A stretch of 64,000 bases of DNA from a phage, in NCBI GenBank assembly GCA_026209155.1, contig GCA_026209155.1_3056.1; one strand, written 5' to 3'. Below the pieces are notes generated by a model that ran no database searches, had not been told where the DNA came from, and worked only from the letters and a program-made list of their open reading frames with translations. Shown in pieces: positions 6,894 through 63,350 of this stretch. How positions within the stretch are numbered: the first letter of the stretch is position 1; the number at the start of each line of letters is the position of its first letter. The translations under genes and the position numbers were made by a program.

Positions 6894-7720
<827 letters not shown>

Positions 7721-7731
7721 ATCATCTCCAA

Positions 7732-8064
7732 TTAAAAAGGATCAGGAACGTATCCGCTAGCTTTAATCATTTTAATTAACGTTAACATTCCTTTGTTAAC
7801 TGCTCGTGAGATTTCATCAAAAGCTTCAGGATTAAAAAGTTCTAACACGCCCTTCTGAACTTTTAATTTACAGCCAACAATTTCTTCATCGCCTATAGTA
7901 AATTCATTACCACCAATTCCTCCGAAAAACTTAATTACACCAGTTAACTGTCTTCCACGAGAATATGGGTCGTGTGATAAATTAATATGAGTCACCCCGG
8001 GTACAGTTTTAAATTGGCAGCGAATGTTTACTTGGGAAATTCCAGTTACATGAATATCAGACAT
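7732..8064 (-). CDS. Hypothetical protein (frd.x-like)
   Basis: 110-aa ORF in same-strand array. Confidence 0.5.
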   Translation of the reverse strand: MSDIHVTGISQVNIRCQFKTVPGVTHINLSHDPYSRGRQLTGVIKFFGGIGGNEFTIGDEEIVGCKLKVQKGVLELFNPEAFDEISRAVNKGMLTLIKMIKASGYVPDPF

Positions 8065-8074
8065 AATATTTTCC

Positions 8075-8374
8075 TCAAACAGACTTTTTCACAATTTTCC
8101 AATCAGCTTTAAACTGTTCAACGTCAGAATGGTAAATCCAGAATCCTGCGCTTTCTCCATCCTCATAAAGAGGGCATCCATCACATTCATCTTCCCATCC
8201 CATATCACGCAAAAGACGTTCAGCTTTTTCAACAAGTTCAGAATCTTTACCAATAATATTAAAATACCATTTACCTCTAACTTCTGAATCTTTGATACTC
8301 TGACGTTGTAATCTCATTTTATTCTCCTTAGTTGATAAGGCTATAGTATCACTACCATAGCCTGTTGTAAACAA
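8075..8374 (-). CDS. Hypothetical protein (frd.x-like)
   Basis: 99-aa ORF. Confidence 0.5.
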   Translation of the reverse strand: MFTTGYGSDTIALSTKENKMRLQRQSIKDSEVRGKWYFNIIGKDSELVEKAERLLRDMGWEDECDGCPLYEDGESAGFWIYHSDVEQFKADWKIVKKSV

Positions 8375-47364: not shown

Positions 47365-47883
47365 TTAATAACCTCGGTCTTGACGAGCGAAGTTTTCAGC
47401 ATTTTTCAGATAATAAAGTTTAAAGATTTCTTCAGCCGTAAGACCGAGACCTTGGAACATGTTCAGAACGAAATGAAGAATATCAATCATTTCGAATTTA
47501 ATTTCCAACTGGTCTTGCGGAGACAAATCAGTAATTAGAGTTTCACGACGTTCACCATGTTGAGCTTTCCAAGGCTTCCATACAGCAGATGCATCTTTTT
47601 CGCCATTGCTCATACCGCCAAGAGAAGTTAGAAGTTCACGGAATTCATCGTCAATATAATCTTTCTGATTACGCAGCCAATCAACAACTTCACCTGCAGT
47701 AGCCAAATCATCAGGATGACGGTTATATTCAGGTTTATCTTTAGCTAAACGAACTTGCAGAGATTTCTGCATATCAAGCATAACCTGCAGTGGGTCTTTT
47801 TCATCACCGAGAATATCCCAGTATTCATTTTGAGCTTTATCAGCGCCTTCGATCAGTTGTGAACATTCATTAAAGTATGCCAT
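47365..47883 (-). CDS. 56: dCTPase/dUTPase gp56 (MazG-like), from internal Met MAYFNE; track ORF 47365..47976
   Basis: 172 aa from internal Met; MotA-type promoter lies inside the track N-terminal extension. Confidence 0.85.
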   Translation of the reverse strand: MAYFNECSQLIEGADKAQNEYWDILGDEKDPLQVMLDMQKSLQVRLAKDKPEYNRHPDDLATAGEVVDWLRNQKDYIDDEFRELLTSLGGMSNGEKDASAVWKPWKAQHGERRETLITDLSPQDQLEIKFEMIDILHFVLNMFQGLGLTAEEIFKLYYLKNAENFARQDRGY

Positions 47884-47917
47884 TATTTTTCCTTTCAATT
47901 CATGGGTTAGTAGATTA

Positions 47918-47942
47918 ATTATACAATAAATATATAAAGCAA
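47918..47942 (-). promoter_or_regulatory. MotA-dependent middle promoter for gene 56
   Basis: Minus-strand TTGCTTTA, 11-nt spacer, TATAAT, about 30 nt upstream of gp56 ATG. Confidence 0.6.
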
Positions 47943-47954
47943 TAAGGAGGACAT

Positions 47955-48155
47955 ATGGTGCAAAAATTAATGGCACTTGTTGATGCCATCAAAGGTAATA
48001 AAAAACGTATAGCTTTTACTATTTCTGCTATGATAGGAATTTTACTTTGGAATTTTGTTTTATCGCCAGTTGCTATTGCTCATGGCGTTAGTATTCCAGT
48101 AATTACTCTTGATACATTCGTAGATTTAGCATTTGCTTTAGTTGGGTTAATTTAA
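47955..48155 (+). CDS. Small hydrophobic membrane protein (66 aa) on the opposite strand between genes 56 and 61
   Basis: AGGAGG Shine-Dalgarno 5 nt upstream of ATG; two predicted TM segments; stop overlaps gene 61 stop. Confidence 0.55.
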   Translation: MVQKLMALVDAIKGNKKRIAFTISAMIGILLWNFVLSPVAIAHGVSIPVITLDTFVDLAFALVGLI

Positions 48156-49180
48156 ATCTTAGCATATTTAGATAGCCGCATTTTAGCCATCAACCCCTGC
48201 GCAATATTATTTTTCATATATTCCATAATTTGTTCAGGGGTTGCACCTTCCTTTCTAATCATATCATTGACATCTTTTGATTTCCAGGGAGATTTATCCC
48301 AAAACATAACCCTTTCTCCTGCATCAACTAATTTAGTCATTCGTTTAATAGTGTCAGGGTGACGAGGTTCATTATCTAAAACCCATACACGTCTATCTTT
48401 AAATGGAACAATTTCTAGGTCTAATTGACCACCCGTAATAGCTATACCATTTTCAATAAAAAGTGAATCTATAGGTCCTTCTAGAACATATACATCACCA
48501 TCTTTAACCCGTTCGACTCCATAAATTTTTGTTGCCTCAGGATAAGCTTTGATGGTGATATATTTTTGGGGAGCGTCTTTCTTTAATGCACGTCCTTGAA
48601 AAGACTCAGCTTTTCCATTAGCATTATAAATTGGAATAACAAGACGAGGCTCAGGTATTTCCTTTTTATATGTTCCTGGCGCTATGCTATTAACTAATTT
48701 AGGCCATTCGGTTGTAAACCAAAGATATTTCCATTTATCCTTTGGAATACAGCGAGCTTTTACGTATTTTATAATTGGATGGTCTTCCGTCAGTTTATCT
48801 AATCTAATGCATGACGGAAGAGATTTAATTATTTTCTTCTCGGGTTGTTTAGGAAGTTCTTTAGGTTTTTCTACTGGACGACTTTTACCTTTTTCTTTTC
48901 TTATTTCAAAGATATACTCACGATATAAATCAGGTTCAAACTCCTTTAAATATATTCCGATTGGTGCATGATAGTTACAGTTATAGCAATGAATATTTCC
49001 TTCATTATTATCACCATAATACCATCCACGGGCTTTATTTTGGTCGGTTTTTGAATCTCCACAAACAGGGCATCTAAACCGTAATTTAAAAGTTGAACTA
49101 TTATTTACTTGTGTAAATTTAGGTAAATGAGCTAGCGCACGATATGCAAACTCATTATCAATCCAAGGTATTGATGACAT
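48152..49180 (-). CDS. 61: DNA primase gp61
   Basis: 342 aa as in T4 gp61; zinc ribbon CPVCGDSK...CYNC and Toprim region. Confidence 0.93.
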   Translation of the reverse strand: MSSIPWIDNEFAYRALAHLPKFTQVNNSSTFKLRFRCPVCGDSKTDQNKARGWYYGDNNEGNIHCYNCNYHAPIGIYLKEFEPDLYREYIFEIRKEKGKSRPVEKPKELPKQPEKKIIKSLPSCIRLDKLTEDHPIIKYVKARCIPKDKWKYLWFTTEWPKLVNSIAPGTYKKEIPEPRLVIPIYNANGKAESFQGRALKKDAPQKYITIKAYPEATKIYGVERVKDGDVYVLEGPIDSLFIENGIAITGGQLDLEIVPFKDRRVWVLDNEPRHPDTIKRMTKLVDAGERVMFWDKSPWKSKDVNDMIRKEGATPEQIMEYMKNNIAQGLMAKMRLSKYAKI

Positions 49181-52265: not shown

Positions 52266-52634
52266 TTAAAAGAATTTAAATTTTTTCTTTGACCTTTTAT
52301 TAAATGCATCTTGTAGTTGCATTGTAATACATTTTTCTACATGAGGAGCTAACTCAGCTTTTCTTTCTTGGTCAAGAACAGCAAAGTCCATTACAACCTT
52401 TCCATCAACCCAATCCAGTTTAGTTACATACACTATATGTGTAGAACCATCTTCTAGTTTAATGACAATCTCCTGGATAACATTTTCCATAGCGGATTTA
52501 ATTATCTTAAGAGACTCATTAAAAAGACGTTCTTTTCTTTCTTCTTCCCCCTCCGAAGAGGGGGATTCATCGATAATTTCTAGATCTAAATCTAAATCTA
52601 AATCATCTTTATTCATTAAATTCTTCCATATCAC
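52266..52634 (-). CDS. 40: gp40-like protein (head assembly) with DLDLDLDLE acidic repeat
   Basis: 122-aa ORF between uvsX and 41. Confidence 0.6.
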   Translation of the reverse strand: MIWKNLMNKDDLDLDLDLEIIDESPSSEGEEERKERLFNESLKIIKSAMENVIQEIVIKLEDGSTHIVYVTKLDWVDGKVVMDFAVLDQERKAELAPHVEKCITMQLQDAFNKRSKKKFKFF

Positions 52635-53790
52635 TTAACTGTTCGAGGTCAGTTTCTAAATCAGCAGCTGATTTACTTTTACTTTCTGGAGATTTAAATT
52701 TTTCAACCTTTGAGTTAATCAATTCATCAACTTCAGCTTCAACAATTTCATTGCTATCAATAGCACCTAACTGATAAGCACGTTTAATAGCATCTCGGAA
52801 TGGTTGATGCTTAAATAAAGGACCCCAGAATGTAGTGCAGTTGGTATCTTTTGCACGCCAAGATTTTTCTTCGCGAATCATCTCACCGGTTTCTTCATCA
52901 AGAAATTCACGAGCATACCAACCGTTCTTAGGTTTTACCACGAATCCTAATTCTAGAGCCATATCTAACAATCCAGAATAAGGATCGATACCACCATCAA
53001 ATTTAACATCAATAAAGAATTTACTTTTTTCTTTAACGGTACGAGATTTTTCTACATTTAGAACAAATTGATACCCCTGAAGATCAGAACCATCTTTAAT
53101 CTGGCGTTTACCGATAATGAATACGGTATCAGCCGAATACATTACGCCTGTACCACCTGTCATCACGGTTTTACTAAACATTTCAATTGTTTCAATTGTA
53201 TGGTTAACCGCAACACATGGAATATTTTTAATGCTAAAATAAGGAGTAACAATACGGAATAATGACTTCAGTGATTTAGCACGAGTCATATCTGCCACAG
53301 ATTTTTCATTCAAGGCATCTTCCGTTTCTTTCTTAGAAGCCATATTACCAATTGAGTCGATGAATACAATAACTTTTTCACCACGCTCAATAGCTTCAAG
53401 CTGATTCACCATATCAATTTTCAGCTGTTCAACTGACTGGATTGGTGTATGAATTACACGTTCCGGATCAACTCCCATGGATCGCAAATAAGCTGGAGTA
53501 ATACCAAATTCGCTATCATAGAATAGACAAACCGCGTCAGGATATTTGTTCAAATACGCCGCAACCATAGTCAAAGACATATTTGATTTAAAGTGTTTAG
53601 AAGGCCCTGCGAAAATAGTTAAACCAGACTGCATTCCACCATCAATCGCACCAGAAATAGCGATATTGAGCATTGGGATTTTTGTACGGATTACATCCTT
53701 TTCATTAAAGAATTTAGATGTAGTCAGCTCAGCAGTCATTTTAGAAGTGGAAGCTTTAATCAAACGGGATTTTAAATCTGCAATAGACAT
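52609..53790 (-). CDS. uvsX: Recombinase UvsX (RecA-like)
   Basis: 393 aa; Walker A GPSKHFKS; RecA-fold. Confidence 0.92.
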   Translation of the reverse strand: MSIADLKSRLIKASTSKMTAELTTSKFFNEKDVIRTKIPMLNIAISGAIDGGMQSGLTIFAGPSKHFKSNMSLTMVAAYLNKYPDAVCLFYDSEFGITPAYLRSMGVDPERVIHTPIQSVEQLKIDMVNQLEAIERGEKVIVFIDSIGNMASKKETEDALNEKSVADMTRAKSLKSLFRIVTPYFSIKNIPCVAVNHTIETIEMFSKTVMTGGTGVMYSADTVFIIGKRQIKDGSDLQGYQFVLNVEKSRTVKEKSKFFIDVKFDGGIDPYSGLLDMALELGFVVKPKNGWYAREFLDEETGEMIREEKSWRAKDTNCTTFWGPLFKHQPFRDAIKRAYQLGAIDSNEIVEAEVDELINSKVEKFKSPESKSKSAADLETDLEQLSDMEEFNE

Positions 53791-53867: not shown

Positions 53868-54716
53868 TTAATCAACTGCTATTGGATGAATAGCATTAAA
53901 CTTATGAAATGCTTCTGATTTTTCTTTACGAGAAATACACATGCGAAGAACCTTTAATGGCTCGTCTTCTTCACCCAACGATTTTCGTTTTTCAATATTA
54001 GAAGTTTTCCAACGAGCTTGCTCTGGAAACTCTCTATTGATTTGTTCAAGCGCTCTATTATGTTTAGAATTACTACGAATTGAACTGCACCCGCCGGGAG
54101 CGTGTGATTTTCCAGATACAACTAGATATTTGAACAAGGCCAAATGCGGATAACCTTGATTAATTAAATTGAGAAATGCGTACATATCTTCACATAAATC
54201 AATTTTTCCATACCCAATTTGTTCTGTCGTAAGTTTTCCGAGGTCATACCATGTATTCGTGAATCCATATGAGTTTTCACGATAATTACCCCAAGATGAA
54301 GTAATTTTAAAAATAGGTAGACGAGCATGGCCATGATAATACCCACAATCCATGGCATCCTCAACGTATTGAATTAATTCATAGAACTGTTCACGAGTTA
54401 ATTGATTAATTTTATCTACGCGCCGTTTATCGTCTCTCTTTCGTATTGAACTCATACGAATAGTAGTATCATCATCAATCATCCAGATTCGTTGACCTGC
54501 ATACATGTCAGTAATTGCTTTACGAGTACCGGCAATTCCGTTTACATCATCAGGAATAGTTATAATTTTAGCTCTAGACCCATAGGCATCATAATAAGCT
54601 TTTTCTTCGTGTTCACGCACTACAATATGTGGTTCATAATCAGTCGGAAACATATCAAGGGCAGAAACTGCCCCTACACGTTGATAGCTTGGAATTACGA
54701 ATTGAATCATTTCCAC
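53868..54716 (-). CDS. Putative DNA glycosyltransferase (DxD-type) at the beta-gt locus; likely beta-glucosyl-HMC alpha-glucosyltransferase
   Basis: 282 aa with IWMIDDDTTI DxD motif; does not resemble remembered T4 beta-glucosyltransferase; sits between uvsX and 42. Confidence 0.55.
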   Translation of the reverse strand: MEMIQFVIPSYQRVGAVSALDMFPTDYEPHIVVREHEEKAYYDAYGSRAKIITIPDDVNGIAGTRKAITDMYAGQRIWMIDDDTTIRMSSIRKRDDKRRVDKINQLTREQFYELIQYVEDAMDCGYYHGHARLPIFKITSSWGNYRENSYGFTNTWYDLGKLTTEQIGYGKIDLCEDMYAFLNLINQGYPHLALFKYLVVSGKSHAPGGCSSIRSNSKHNRALEQINREFPEQARWKTSNIEKRKSLGEEDEPLKVLRMCISRKEKSEAFHKFNAIHPIAVD

Positions 54717-55447
54717 TCACCGTTATAATCTTTTTTCACAATATGAGTTTCGCCAGTATTCCACCAATGATCAACCAAGTAAAAATGACGAGAATATACA
54801 TGAAGACTTCCAACATTCCATATAATAGAACCTGCTTTATACTGACGAGTTGAATCGCCTGCATTCAAATCAGATACTAATTTATCTAATACGTATTTTT
54901 GCCATGCATAATCATTACGGAATCCGAAGACCACGTCATTTGAGCGCATGCTTACTACTGCATTGACTTTCTTATCACGAATCAGGTACTGTACTGTATT
55001 AGTACACATGAAATCTGACATACCATCTTTATTGTAGTCAAATTGCATGGATGGACGAGTATAAATCATGATACCACGTCGAGAATCAGGATTTTGACCA
55101 AGTTCAGCTAAACACATATCATACTGAGCATAGTTATCTTCTGACCAGATAGCCCAACCGTAATTCGAGTTAATTTCACCTTTAGAAGATGCTACTTGTT
55201 GCCAAATCTTCGGTGTTTCACCCGGAATATCTTTAACGAACAAGCTCTTAGATTTATACCATTCAAGTTCACGCTGAATGTATTCATCATTAAGAGCGCC
55301 AAAAATAAACGGTTCATCTGCTACAAATGATGCGCCAATAATTTCAATAGTTTTAACACCAGTTTTATCAACTACGAAATCTTTTTCTTTTAATGCAAGC
55401 CCCAAATGAAGACGGATTTCTTCAACTGTCATAGAGTCACTAATCAT
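54707..55447 (-). CDS. 42: dCMP hydroxymethylase gp42
   Basis: 246 aa as in T4 gp42; TS-family fold. Confidence 0.92.
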   Translation of the reverse strand: MISDSMTVEEIRLHLGLALKEKDFVVDKTGVKTIEIIGASFVADEPFIFGALNDEYIQRELEWYKSKSLFVKDIPGETPKIWQQVASSKGEINSNYGWAIWSEDNYAQYDMCLAELGQNPDSRRGIMIYTRPSMQFDYNKDGMSDFMCTNTVQYLIRDKKVNAVVSMRSNDVVFGFRNDYAWQKYVLDKLVSDLNAGDSTRQYKAGSIIWNVGSLHVYSRHFYLVDHWWNTGETHIVKKDYNGEWK

Positions 55448-55454
55448 TTAAACC

Positions 55455-55604
55455 TCAATTGATACATTCATATTTAACTTGTAACAGTAATAAACTCCAA
55501 CCTAAAATAATAGTTGGAATCATAAGAGGAACCGTTACACTATAGTATATACTTATTATAACCATCAAGATTAAAAGCAACACTGCTATAATTTTGCTTT
55601 TCAT
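55455..55604 (-). CDS. Small hydrophobic membrane peptide (49 aa), not in ORF track
   Basis: ATG overlaps imm stop (ATGA); hand-translated MKSKIIAVLLLILMVIISIYYSVTVPLMIPTIILGWSLLLLQVKYECIN. Confidence 0.4.
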   Translation of the reverse strand: MKSKIIAVLLLILMVIISIYYSVTVPLMIPTIILGWSLLLLQVKYECIN

Positions 55605-56250: not shown

Positions 56251-56487
56251 TCAAATGCAAGTAGTAATTACTCCAGTAGTGCTTATGCAGGTATTACCCA
56301 TTTGCACACCTAAAGATCCATTTGTATTCACATGAAGATTATCATCAATTTTAACTGATATTTTACCATTAGTGTGAATAACAGTGCTAGATTCAATCAC
56401 AGGTTGAGTATCATTTTCAACACTAACAAATGGAACTGCTGTTAATGCAACTAAACAAACTGCTAAGCATCCCATAACAATTTTCAT
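56251..56487 (-). CDS. Small secreted protein (78 aa); track ORF 56251..56601 trimmed to the Met after the promoter
   Basis: MKIVMGCLAVCLVALTAVPFVSVEND signal-peptide-like N-terminus; upstream codons are promoter read-through. Confidence 0.5.
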   Translation of the reverse strand: MKIVMGCLAVCLVALTAVPFVSVENDTQPVIESSTVIHTNGKISVKIDDNLHVNTNGSLGVQMGNTCISTTGVITTCI

Positions 56488-56509
56488 TTTATTCTCCAAA
56501 TCTGTATCA

Positions 56510-56556
56510 GTAGTTGATAGTTGTATAGTACCATGGAAGAACAGTCTTGTAAACAG
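56510..56556 (-). promoter_or_regulatory. T4-type early promoter downstream of gene 43
   Basis: Minus-strand GTTTAC-17 nt-GTACTATAC with conserved leader. Confidence 0.5.
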
Positions 56557-56631
56557 TTTTGTGAAAAAATTTTTTAATGAATCCAAAAGGTCCAGAATCA
56601 TCTGTTTTTCACAAGTATAGATTTATATTAC

Positions 56632-61393: not shown

Positions 61394-62080
61394 TTAAAAA
61401 TCGTGGGTAGAATCAGCTTCAAGAGCTACTACATAATTCGCATGTTCACCTTCAAATTTAGCAGCACCTTGTTTACCTTTTGCCCAGAGCAGAAGTTTAT
61501 AATTTCCTGGTTGCATTTTCATATTTGCCATATTGATAATGAAATTAAATGTATTTTCACCATCATAATCACCAAGAGTCAAAGAATATTTAACACGGGT
61601 TAAAGCAGAATCTTCTACTTTATTAAAACCGTTAATTACGATTTTACCTTCTTTTACCGTGATAGCAATTGTATCAATTTGCAGACCACGGGATACACGC
61701 AACAGTTGTTGAAGGTCTTCAGCTTTAATTTCAGTAACAACAGATGCTACCGGGAATGGAATTGGTTTATTAGGAGCAACTACTGTACTCGGATCGGCTG
61801 CTGGCCAAAAAATTGTTGAACGAGCATCAGCAATTTTAATATTTCCATCTTCTGACTGGGAAATTTCTGCATCATCATTAACTAGAGACAGAATACCGAG
61901 AAAACCGTTCAAATCGTAAATTGCTACATCAAAATCAATAACGTCAGAAATATTTGCTTCCGCATAAGTTGTACCATTAACTGCACGAGTCATAATAAAT
62001 TGACCAGATTTAAGCATAATACCGGAGTTAATAGTAGCGAAATTTTTCAAAATATTCAGTGTGTCTTTAGATAATTTCAT
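61394..62080 (-). CDS. 45: Sliding clamp gp45
   Basis: 228 aa as in T4 gp45; N-terminus [46 protein letters not shown]. Confidence 0.93.
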   Translation of the reverse strand: MKLSKDTLNILKNFATINSGIMLKSGQFIMTRAVNGTTYAEANISDVIDFDVAIYDLNGFLGILSLVNDDAEISQSEDGNIKIADARSTIFWPAADPSTVVAPNKPIPFPVASVVTEIKAEDLQQLLRVSRGLQIDTIAITVKEGKIVINGFNKVEDSALTRVKYSLTLGDYDGENTFNFIINMANMKMQPGNYKLLLWAKGKQGAAKFEGEHANYVVALEADSTHDF

Positions 62081-62964
62081 TTCAATTTCCTATTTACATA
62101 ATAGTTAGACCAGGACCGTACAGCACCCTGATAAGATTCGTCGTTAAACCCATTAGCTACTGCAATTTTACGAAATTTATTATAACTCGGTTTTCCGTAA
62201 GCATGCCATAAAGTTTTTAATTCATCTTCATGTTCAATCCAAGTTCCTCTAGCTTTAGATTTTCTAAATTTTGATTTGAATTCCGGTAAATTATTTCTAA
62301 CAGTTGCTTGAATTGAAGCTCTCTGTCTTCTTTCAGCATTATTCCATAACTCTTTTTGAGATTTAGAAATTTTTGATCTTACACTTTCTGAATTCATTAT
62401 ATCACTAAACTTTTTAGCATAACTACAATCAAGATATTTCAATTTCATCTTATTTGAAAGTTTAAGCTTTTTCTCATCGGTCCAGTGATTCTTCATTGAA
62501 TTAGATATTTTATATTTTACGCCAGAACTATGTTTGTAACCTTTACGAATACCAACATAATCGGGCGTAATTTCAGATTGCGAAAGCTTTACAATTTTTC
62601 CAGTTAAAACATTTTTATATGTTCCATATCCTTTAGCGCCAATTAAAGTATTTTCATCTGCGTATGCTTTATTAAAATATTTTATATTGCTTTTTGCTTT
62701 AACTTTTAATTGAAAAAATCTTTCCAATTTTCTTGGATCTAATATAGTTTCAGCTAAAATTTTGACGGTATATTTAGTGGTTTTAATAAGCTCAAAATAT
62801 TCATCACTATAACTCGATGACACGCTTCCAGTATAAATCTTTCCAGCTGAATCAATTATATTTGTTCCATCGAAAATTGCGTTAATTTTTGAACCTATAT
62901 AATAACACGGAAAAATATTTTTAGCTTCCCGCTCTGGAAAGCTAATAAGATATACTAAATTCAT
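62077..62964 (-). CDS. Free-standing GIY-YIG-like homing endonuclease candidate with NUMOD3-like repeats, inserted between rpbA and gene 45
   Basis: N-terminal [26 protein letters not shown], paralogous to the segG-like ORF; basic C-terminal half with SxxxKxKIS-like repeats. Confidence 0.6.
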
Positions 62965-63350
62965 TTATTAAACTCGGCCACAATTGTTTCCGCAACAATT
63001 TGAGCAGCAACAATCAGACGTTCATCTGCATTACCGCAATATTCATCTTCAAGGCGTTCACCACATGAAGTCATAATAAATTTAGCACCAGCGTTTAGGG
63101 ATTCTGTAGTATGTTTGCGCATTAGTTCAATCCATTTATTACTTACTTCACGATCGATAGCTTCATAATACGCATGACGAGCAGGTGCAGATTTAATTTT
63201 GTTCTGAATAACTTCCATTGCGTTATCAGAAAGAGACAAAACCCATGCTCGACGAATTTTATTTTGGTTTTGTGGATTTGATTCAGAACGCACGTGTTTT
63301 GGCTGAATATCTTTTACGTCAACAGTATAATTCACAGTAATTTTAGTCAT
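62961..63350 (-). CDS. rpbA: RNA polymerase-binding protein RpbA
   Basis: 129 aa as in T4 RpbA; position between 46 and 45. Confidence 0.75.

Follow-up and report, generated by a model that had tools for sequence, protein, structure and literature searches.

The locus between uvsX and gene 42 encodes a 351-aa beta-glucosyltransferase in phage T4, and the DNA analyzed here raises the question of which enzyme occupies that position in its phage. The window, meaning the whole 64,000-nt stretch that was analyzed, belongs to a Tequatrovirus; over 10 kb, it shares 98.7% identity with Escherichia phage vb_EcoM_bov9_1 (bov9_1). The sugar pattern on hmC determines which bacterial defences can hit a T-even phage. 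An earlier note made from the letters of this DNA proposed that a different glycosyltransferase sits at the locus, probably the gentiobiosyl enzyme of T2 and T6. With high confidence, the gene product is indeed the T2/T6-type beta-glucosyl-HMC-alpha-glucosyltransferase (ba-gt, ggt, or TAGT), a reading that takes in the full pathway set out below.

The Gene Between uvsX and Gene 42

An uninterrupted minus-strand ORF spans 53868..54716, in the interval between uvsX and gene 42 to which the earlier note had assigned it (Table 1). Counted from its GTG, the ORF encodes the 282-aa protein of that note. The ORF is real, and its length is to be corrected: translation probably begins at ATG 54710, two codons downstream of the GTG, which yields a protein of 280 aa. 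This ATG is preferred because it overlaps the gene 42 stop TGA (54709-54707) to form ATGA, because a 5-nt spacer separates it from a GGTGAG element, and because the same start position is annotated in T2, T6, bov9_1, NR1, EL, and other records. The upstream GTG was rejected as a start since it falls within the Shine-Dalgarno-like element, which leaves no spacer, and relatives all annotate the ATG. The ATGA junction is kept in T2 and in both T6 records, and the overlap suggests co-transcription of the glucosyltransferase gene with gene 42 and translational coupling of the two. A promoter and terminator scan around the gene returned 12 sites, with 10.6 expected from shuffled sequence, and thus no excess.

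Table 1. Positions of the features discussed, numbered from the first letter of the window.
Feature	Position	Strand	Description
Gene 56, dCTPase/dUTPase	47365..47883	-	tblastn with T4 gp56: 74% identity over 172 aa (full length), 3.6e-84; PHROG 173
uvsX	52609..53790		Neighbour of the glucosyltransferase gene
CDS, very probably of beta-glucosyl-HMC-alpha-glucosyltransferase (ba-gt / ggt / TAGT)	53868..54710	-	280 aa; likely start ATG 54710, stop TAA 53868-53870
Mosaic patch 2, ~codons 195-215	54070..54130	-	Just before the invariant GG of PGGCSS; 4 nt differ from bov9_1
Mosaic patch 1, ~codons 75-115	54350..54490	-	Basic hairpin after DDD; 15 differences in 120 nt from bov9_1
DDD (DxD), putative metal/nucleotide-sugar motif, codons 79-81	54468..54476	-	GATGATGAT; IWMIDDDTTI
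PSYQR, codons 7-11	54678..54692	-	N-terminal strand-loop; model strand E3-7
Junction with gene 42	54707..54721	-	GGTGAG Shine-Dalgarno-like element 54716-54721; 5-nt spacer; ATG 54710-54708
Gene 42, dCMP hydroxymethylase	54707..55447	-	246 aa, intact, 97% identical to T4 gp42

The identical 280-aa protein is already public (HCS5775761.1, from a 167.9-kb contig), and tblastn detects a homologue in 689 of 50,697 phage records, which together show that the ORF is not a chance frame. The protein is 97% identical over 280 aa to the T2 gene product and 96% identical over 280 aa to the T6 gene product, both from the same uvsX-42 locus, and 97% identical to the NR1 copy. The window, T2, and T6 proteins fall into one 90%-identity cluster, whose T2 and T6 members are named beta-glucosyl-HMC-alpha-glucosyltransferase by the sources. 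A Pfam search returns a single match, PF20691 "TET-associated glycosyltransferase" (TAGT), at 39.8 bits against a curated gathering cut-off of 27.5. This match spans residues 5-209 of the protein and positions 2-205 of the 205-position profile. PHROG 842, "beta-glucosyl-HMC-alpha-glucosyltransferase", is matched at 3e-88, and top matches to a non-glycosyltransferase family were not seen.

The lack of resemblance to T4 beta-gt that the earlier note stated is borne out by direct comparison (BLASTP E = 4.1). The protein has no match to the Pfam beta-gt family (PF09198) even at E values up to 10. A tblastn search over the whole window for beta-gt, alpha-gt, dam, and segA found none of the four.

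Homologues at 95-99% identity account for 471 of the 689 records, and about 200 more lie at 60-80% identity in Klebsiella, Enterobacter, and similar phages. The T2/T6-type gene is the usual occupant of the uvsX-42 locus in T4-like coliphages, and T4 beta-gt is the exception. The emphasis of the earlier note is adjusted accordingly, with the T2/T6-type gene as the genus norm and T4 beta-gt as the rarity (PMC13216743). Every feature of family membership that is checkable here is present, and the gene represents an already known, common state in Tequatrovirus. It is no new discovery, as the second-glucose gene of T2 and T6 has been known for decades. The T2 and T6 genes were reportedly cloned by Winkler and Rueger in 1993 (Nucleic Acids Res).

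Fold, Conserved Residues, and the hmC Pathway

A PDB sequence search with the glucosyltransferase protein gives chance matches alone (E above 1), so its fold is assigned from a predicted model. Two database searches supplied a 41-member family alignment that extends to ~20% identity, and the AlphaFold2 model built from it has a pLDDT of 90.9 and a pTM of 0.90. The model adopts a GT-A fold, a single Rossmann-like alpha/beta/alpha domain that is structurally similar to solved GT-A enzymes. Eleven residues are invariant in the family (I6, R11, R63, D79, D80, D81, D175, G186, G206, G207, and R212), and all are present in the window protein. The DxD motif reported by the earlier note is found as described; its D79-D81 directly follow strand beta-4 (residues 74-78) in the model and are invariant in the 41 family members.

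In the PSYQR region, I6 and R11 are invariant and P7 and Y9 are nearly so across the same alignment. The PSYQR loop would bind nucleotide, as is typical of GT-A/GT2 enzymes in general, and the catalytic roles of individual residues are likewise predictions from the model. An inverting GT-A enzyme that uses UDP-alpha-glucose produces a beta linkage. A beta linkage is therefore expected from an inverting GT-A fold, and it fits the known product of the T2/T6-type enzyme.

A decaying or inactive gene copy is extremely unlikely. Public T6 records do show lesions in ba-gt (MH550421; AP018814/NC_054907), yet the window copy is full length, keeps all family-invariant residues and the start junction, and encodes a protein that is recorded identically elsewhere.

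The T6 lesions are of two kinds. MH550421.1 (gene 1317-2159) carries TAG at codon 10, where CAG or CAA stands elsewhere, and an internal Met was taken as the start of its annotated CDS. AP018814.1, which equals NC_054907.1 (gene 7135-7974), is missing one Asp of the DDD at codon 79 through a 3-nt deletion that occurs in this one sequence only of 474 records. RefSeq has the resulting shorter protein, YP_010067197.1, as its representative, and a 2026 paper used it as a query. Both lesions may be stock-specific mutations or sequencing errors. The idea that the DxD is dispensable, drawn from the single-Asp deletion, was rejected because the deletion has a single T6 source in 474 records and the DDD is intact in the other T6 record.

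The window gene order is 41-40-uvsX-[glucosyltransferase]-42-imm-43, the same as in T6, T2, bov9_1, NR1, and EL. By homology, gp42 would provide hydroxymethyl-dCMP, with the base that is glucosylated afterwards. Together, gp42, gp56, and a kinase would make hydroxymethyl-dCTP and exclude dCTP, such that hmC is built into the DNA. An alpha-gt is present in all seven relatives checked (bov9_1, NR1, EL, Geo, BGP, T2, and T6). In relatives it lies ~7.6 kb past gene 43, at a place beyond the right end of the window (~8 kb beyond it in all of them), and in NR1 it lies between genes 47 and 55. By analogy with these seven phages, the window phage is expected to carry alpha-gt outside the window, and its product would place glucose on hmC in alpha linkage. 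The 280-aa GT-A enzyme, with UDP-glucose as donor and the DDD as its metal site, would then attach a second glucose through a beta-1,6 linkage, producing gentiobiosyl-hmC. This transfer to alpha-glucosyl-hmC is predicted from the 96-97% identity that the protein shares with the T6 enzyme, for which genetic tests exist. The second sugar would shield alpha-glucosyl-hmC from the Brig1 glycosylase and from BapA. As there is no T4-type beta-gt, no beta-glucosyl-hmC is expected in the DNA of the window phage.

Several other features of the surrounding region differ from T4. The gp56 of the window is 74% identical to T4 gp56, while neighbouring genes are ~97% identical, and gene 56 is not flanked by the homing endonuclease segF as it is in T4. 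The dam gene was not found between gene 56 and primase gene 61 (47365..49180) or elsewhere in the window; it occupies the gene 56-61 position in T4, T2, EL, Geo, and BGP and is missing there in T6 and NR1. The window phage is thus probably without its own GATC methylation, unless dam is located elsewhere in the genome. A 295-aa homing-endonuclease-like ORF (62077..62964, minus strand; PHROG 655 at 7e-32) has weak similarity to T4 SegA and lies between gene 45 (61394..62080) and rpbA (62961..63350), with a 4-nt overlap with each. This ORF also occurs in bov9_1, whereas T4, T6, T2, NR1, EL, and Geo lack it at the same spot, and a mobile insertion of the seg type is the probable explanation. Two minus-strand ORFs lie between genes 42 and 43. 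One encodes 116 aa (56251..56601; PHROG 4189 and 28140) at a site where the T4 annotation is empty from imm.1 to gene 43 and relatives have smaller annotated ORFs or none. The other encodes a hydrophobic 49-aa product (55455..55604; PHROG 3610) without a counterpart in the T4 table, although NR1, JK1, and EL each have an annotated ORF of the same size (150 nt) at that place.

The chemistry and the defence phenotype come from published work on T6 and relatives, while identity, synteny, fold, motifs, and the intact frame were established here. The T2/T6 beta-glucosyl-HMC-alpha-glucosyltransferase belongs to PF20691, and the T6 protein has been modelled as a GT-A enzyme that is sister to GT2 (PMC13216743, NAR 2026). 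The same study places TAGT in a position syntenic with T4 beta-gt, and it finds that nearly all phages with such enzymes pair an alpha-GT or beta-GT with TAGT and that the combination of alpha-GT with beta-GT is confined to T4 and five relatives. Deletion of ba-gt from T6 leaves alpha-glucosyl-hmC only and raises sensitivity to the Brig1 glycosylase (PMC11078745, Nature 2024), and deletion of T6 ba-gt / g-gt exposes the DNA to the glucose-removing enzyme BapA (bioRxiv 10.64898/2026.02.25.707755). HPLC-MS of nucleosides from ten Durham Tequatrovirus phages, which carry alpha-GT and TAGT and no beta-GT, detected hmC, alpha-glucosyl-hmC, and gentiobiosyl-hmC in all ten and found no beta-glucosyl-hmC (PMC13390438, AEM 2026). 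Its authors also place TAGT at the site syntenic with T4 beta-gt. The measured phages NR1, QOTSP, and EH2 are among the close relatives of the window, as are EL, Geo, and BGP.

The gentiobiosyl assignment made in the earlier note is thus supported by the 97% and 96% identities to T2 and T6, PHROG 842, PF20691, the T6 deletion, and the LC-MS of relatives. None of the evidence contradicts a T2/T6-type identification.

Two other reactions were weighed against beta-1,6 transfer. In one, the protein is a TAGT-family enzyme whose acceptor is bare hmC itself, or whose donor sugar is not glucose but, for example, arabinose. The family is diverse: 288 of 753 phage genomes encode a TAGT homologue without an alpha- or beta-GT (PMC13216743), reactions of this sort are suspected for solitary homologues in other phages, and metagenomic members fall as low as 20-30% identity. 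The window protein is instead 96-97% identical to the T2/T6 enzyme of known deletion phenotype, and relatives with 97% identical enzymes have gentiobiose and no other sugar (PMC13390438). The window also encodes an hmC synthase of the gp42 type (97% identical to T4 gp42), which is distinct from the 5-hydroxy-dCMP synthase that arabinosylating phages of the Mosigvirus group use, and a different reaction is accordingly very unlikely.

In the other, the enzyme stands in for T4 beta-gt and adds a single beta-glucose to hmC that alpha-gt has left bare. The gene does occupy the T4 beta-gt position, and an inverting GT-A fold would yield a beta linkage. This role is highly improbable given that there is no sequence similarity to beta-gt, that the fold class differs (GT-A versus GT-B; model and PMC13216743), and that relatives leave ~1/4 to 1/3 of their hmC unglucosylated with no detectable beta-glucosyl-hmC (PMC13390438).

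Transfer of the second glucose onto alpha-glucosyl-hmC, the preferred reading, bears on which defences the phage would meet. Bare hmC is attacked by McrBC/McrA. Alpha-glucosyl-hmC is the Brig1 target and is exposed by BapA, and gentiobiosyl-hmC resists both. DNA with gentiobiosyl-hmC is still cut by type IV enzymes of the GmrSD/BrxU type (for these defences together: PMC13390438, PMC13216743, PMC11078745, bioRxiv 10.64898/2026.02.25.707755). The presence of ba-gt and absence of b-gt make host range against such defences predictable, which is useful in the choice of therapeutic phages.

A Mosaic Allele and the Ratio of hmC Sugars

The fraction of doubly glucosylated hmC varies among phages with near-identical enzymes and is not readable from sequence. 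Gentiobiosyl-hmC makes up ~5% in T2 and ~72% in T6 (PMC13390438; bioRxiv 10.64898/2026.02.25.707755), ~40% in EL, Geo, and BGP, and ~67% in the NR1 group (PMC13390438). Variable sites were tabulated for the enzymes of 8 of the 10 measured Durham Tequatrovirus phages, T2, both T6 records, bov9_1, and JK1.

At the DNA level, the window equals bov9_1 through gene 42 (100%) and the first ~220 nt of the glucosyltransferase gene. Two patches within the gene depart from it. Counted per 60 nt, the differences show that window DNA in patch 1 is identical to the Geo/BGP allele, which encodes I89, K95, R97, and I101. In patch 2, window DNA is again identical to Geo/BGP and encodes S202 and H203, as in EL, Geo, and BGP, versus A202 and Q203 in the others. 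Thus, I89, K95, R97, I101, S202, and H203 are common to the window, EL, Geo, and BGP, with M, R, C, V, A, and Q at these positions in T2, T6, bov9_1, JK1, NR1, TB37, QOTSP, CP, and EH2. The patch-1 allele occurs in 52 of 449 records, including PST, slur03/08/14, HY03, G50, and Lutter. These patterns indicate that the gene is a fine-scale recombination mosaic with a minority allele, in which a bov9_1-type backbone carries two PST/Geo/BGP-type patches. Both patches stand at ~12% DNA divergence from the otherwise nearly identical bov9_1.

A tentative refinement of the main reading is that this allele works only partially, giving hmC, alpha-glucosyl-hmC, and gentiobiosyl-hmC at ~1:2:2 instead of a T6-like ~2/3 gentiobiosyl. 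Its six patch residues are exactly those of EL, Geo, and BGP, the five two-thirds-gentiobiosyl phages checked have the other six, and the LC-MS ratios of EL/Geo/BGP and the NR1 group differ (PMC13390438). In the model, patch 1 follows the DDD and patch 2 lies beside the invariant GG, where contacts with acceptor or DNA are plausible. The correlation comes from three closely related phages (EL, Geo, and BGP) that are also dam+, whereas the window is without dam, and the ratio could just as well be set by differences in alpha-gt, in the level of expression, or in its timing. At all six positions T2 agrees with the "high" phages, yet it has ~5% gentiobiosyl-hmC, the lowest ratio. A more general role is doubtful still: that the patches tune the completeness of second-glucose addition, with allele shuffling setting the mix of hmC, glucosyl-hmC, and gentiobiosyl-hmC that is presented to defences. 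The relation between patch allele and sugar ratio is a testable lead rather than a finding.

The absence of dam was considered as a pointer to the "two-thirds gentiobiosyl" Durham group and was set aside. It is at odds with the evidence from the allele and lacks a mechanistic basis, and no ratio is predicted from it.

The T2 gene carries changes of its own. In AP018813.1 (gene 7283-8125), codon 11 encodes His where Arg is invariant in the 41 aligned family members, and P251S is also present. The exact 91-nt T2 segment is found in seven T2 records and SV76 only, among 462 records. From these sequences, H11 (with P251S) is a candidate explanation for the low (~5%) gentiobiosyl content of T2 relative to T6, and no paper addressing this link was found.

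Comparison with Known Systems

Cellular GT2-like GT-A enzymes (WrtF 9omh, AvpGT 9jma, TarS 5tze, and SpsA 1h7l) share 8-16% sequence identity with the window protein, and their acceptors are lipid, teichoic acid, or polysaccharide, whereas its acceptor would be a sugar on DNA. Distant metagenomic members of PF20691 have the same invariant R11, DDD, D175, GG, and R212. The TAGT family is named after members beside TET/JBP dioxygenases; unlike these, the window phage makes hmC at the nucleotide level via gp42, and no TET-like gene is involved at its uvsX-42 locus.

T4 b-gt and the window gene share a genomic position downstream of gene 42. Both enzymes take glucose from UDP-glucose and join it in beta linkage to phage DNA that contains hmC (PMC13216743). 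The homing endonuclease segA adjoins b-gt in T4 and is absent in the window. The fold is GT-A here, as predicted, and GT-B in T4, and the acceptor is bare hmC for T4 b-gt and would, by analogy with T6, be alpha-glucosyl-hmC for the window enzyme.

The closest likeness is to ba-gt of T2 and T6, with the same locus, ATGA junction, Pfam family, and PHROG (T6 RefSeq YP_010067197.1). Length is equal as well, except for one residue in one T6 record. Nine substitutions separate the window protein from that of T2, among them R11H and P251S (window residue first), and ten substitutions plus one indel separate it from that of T6, including Y40N, D55G, and R106H. Relative to both, it carries the minority patch allele I89/K95/R97/I101/S202/H203, plus I259.
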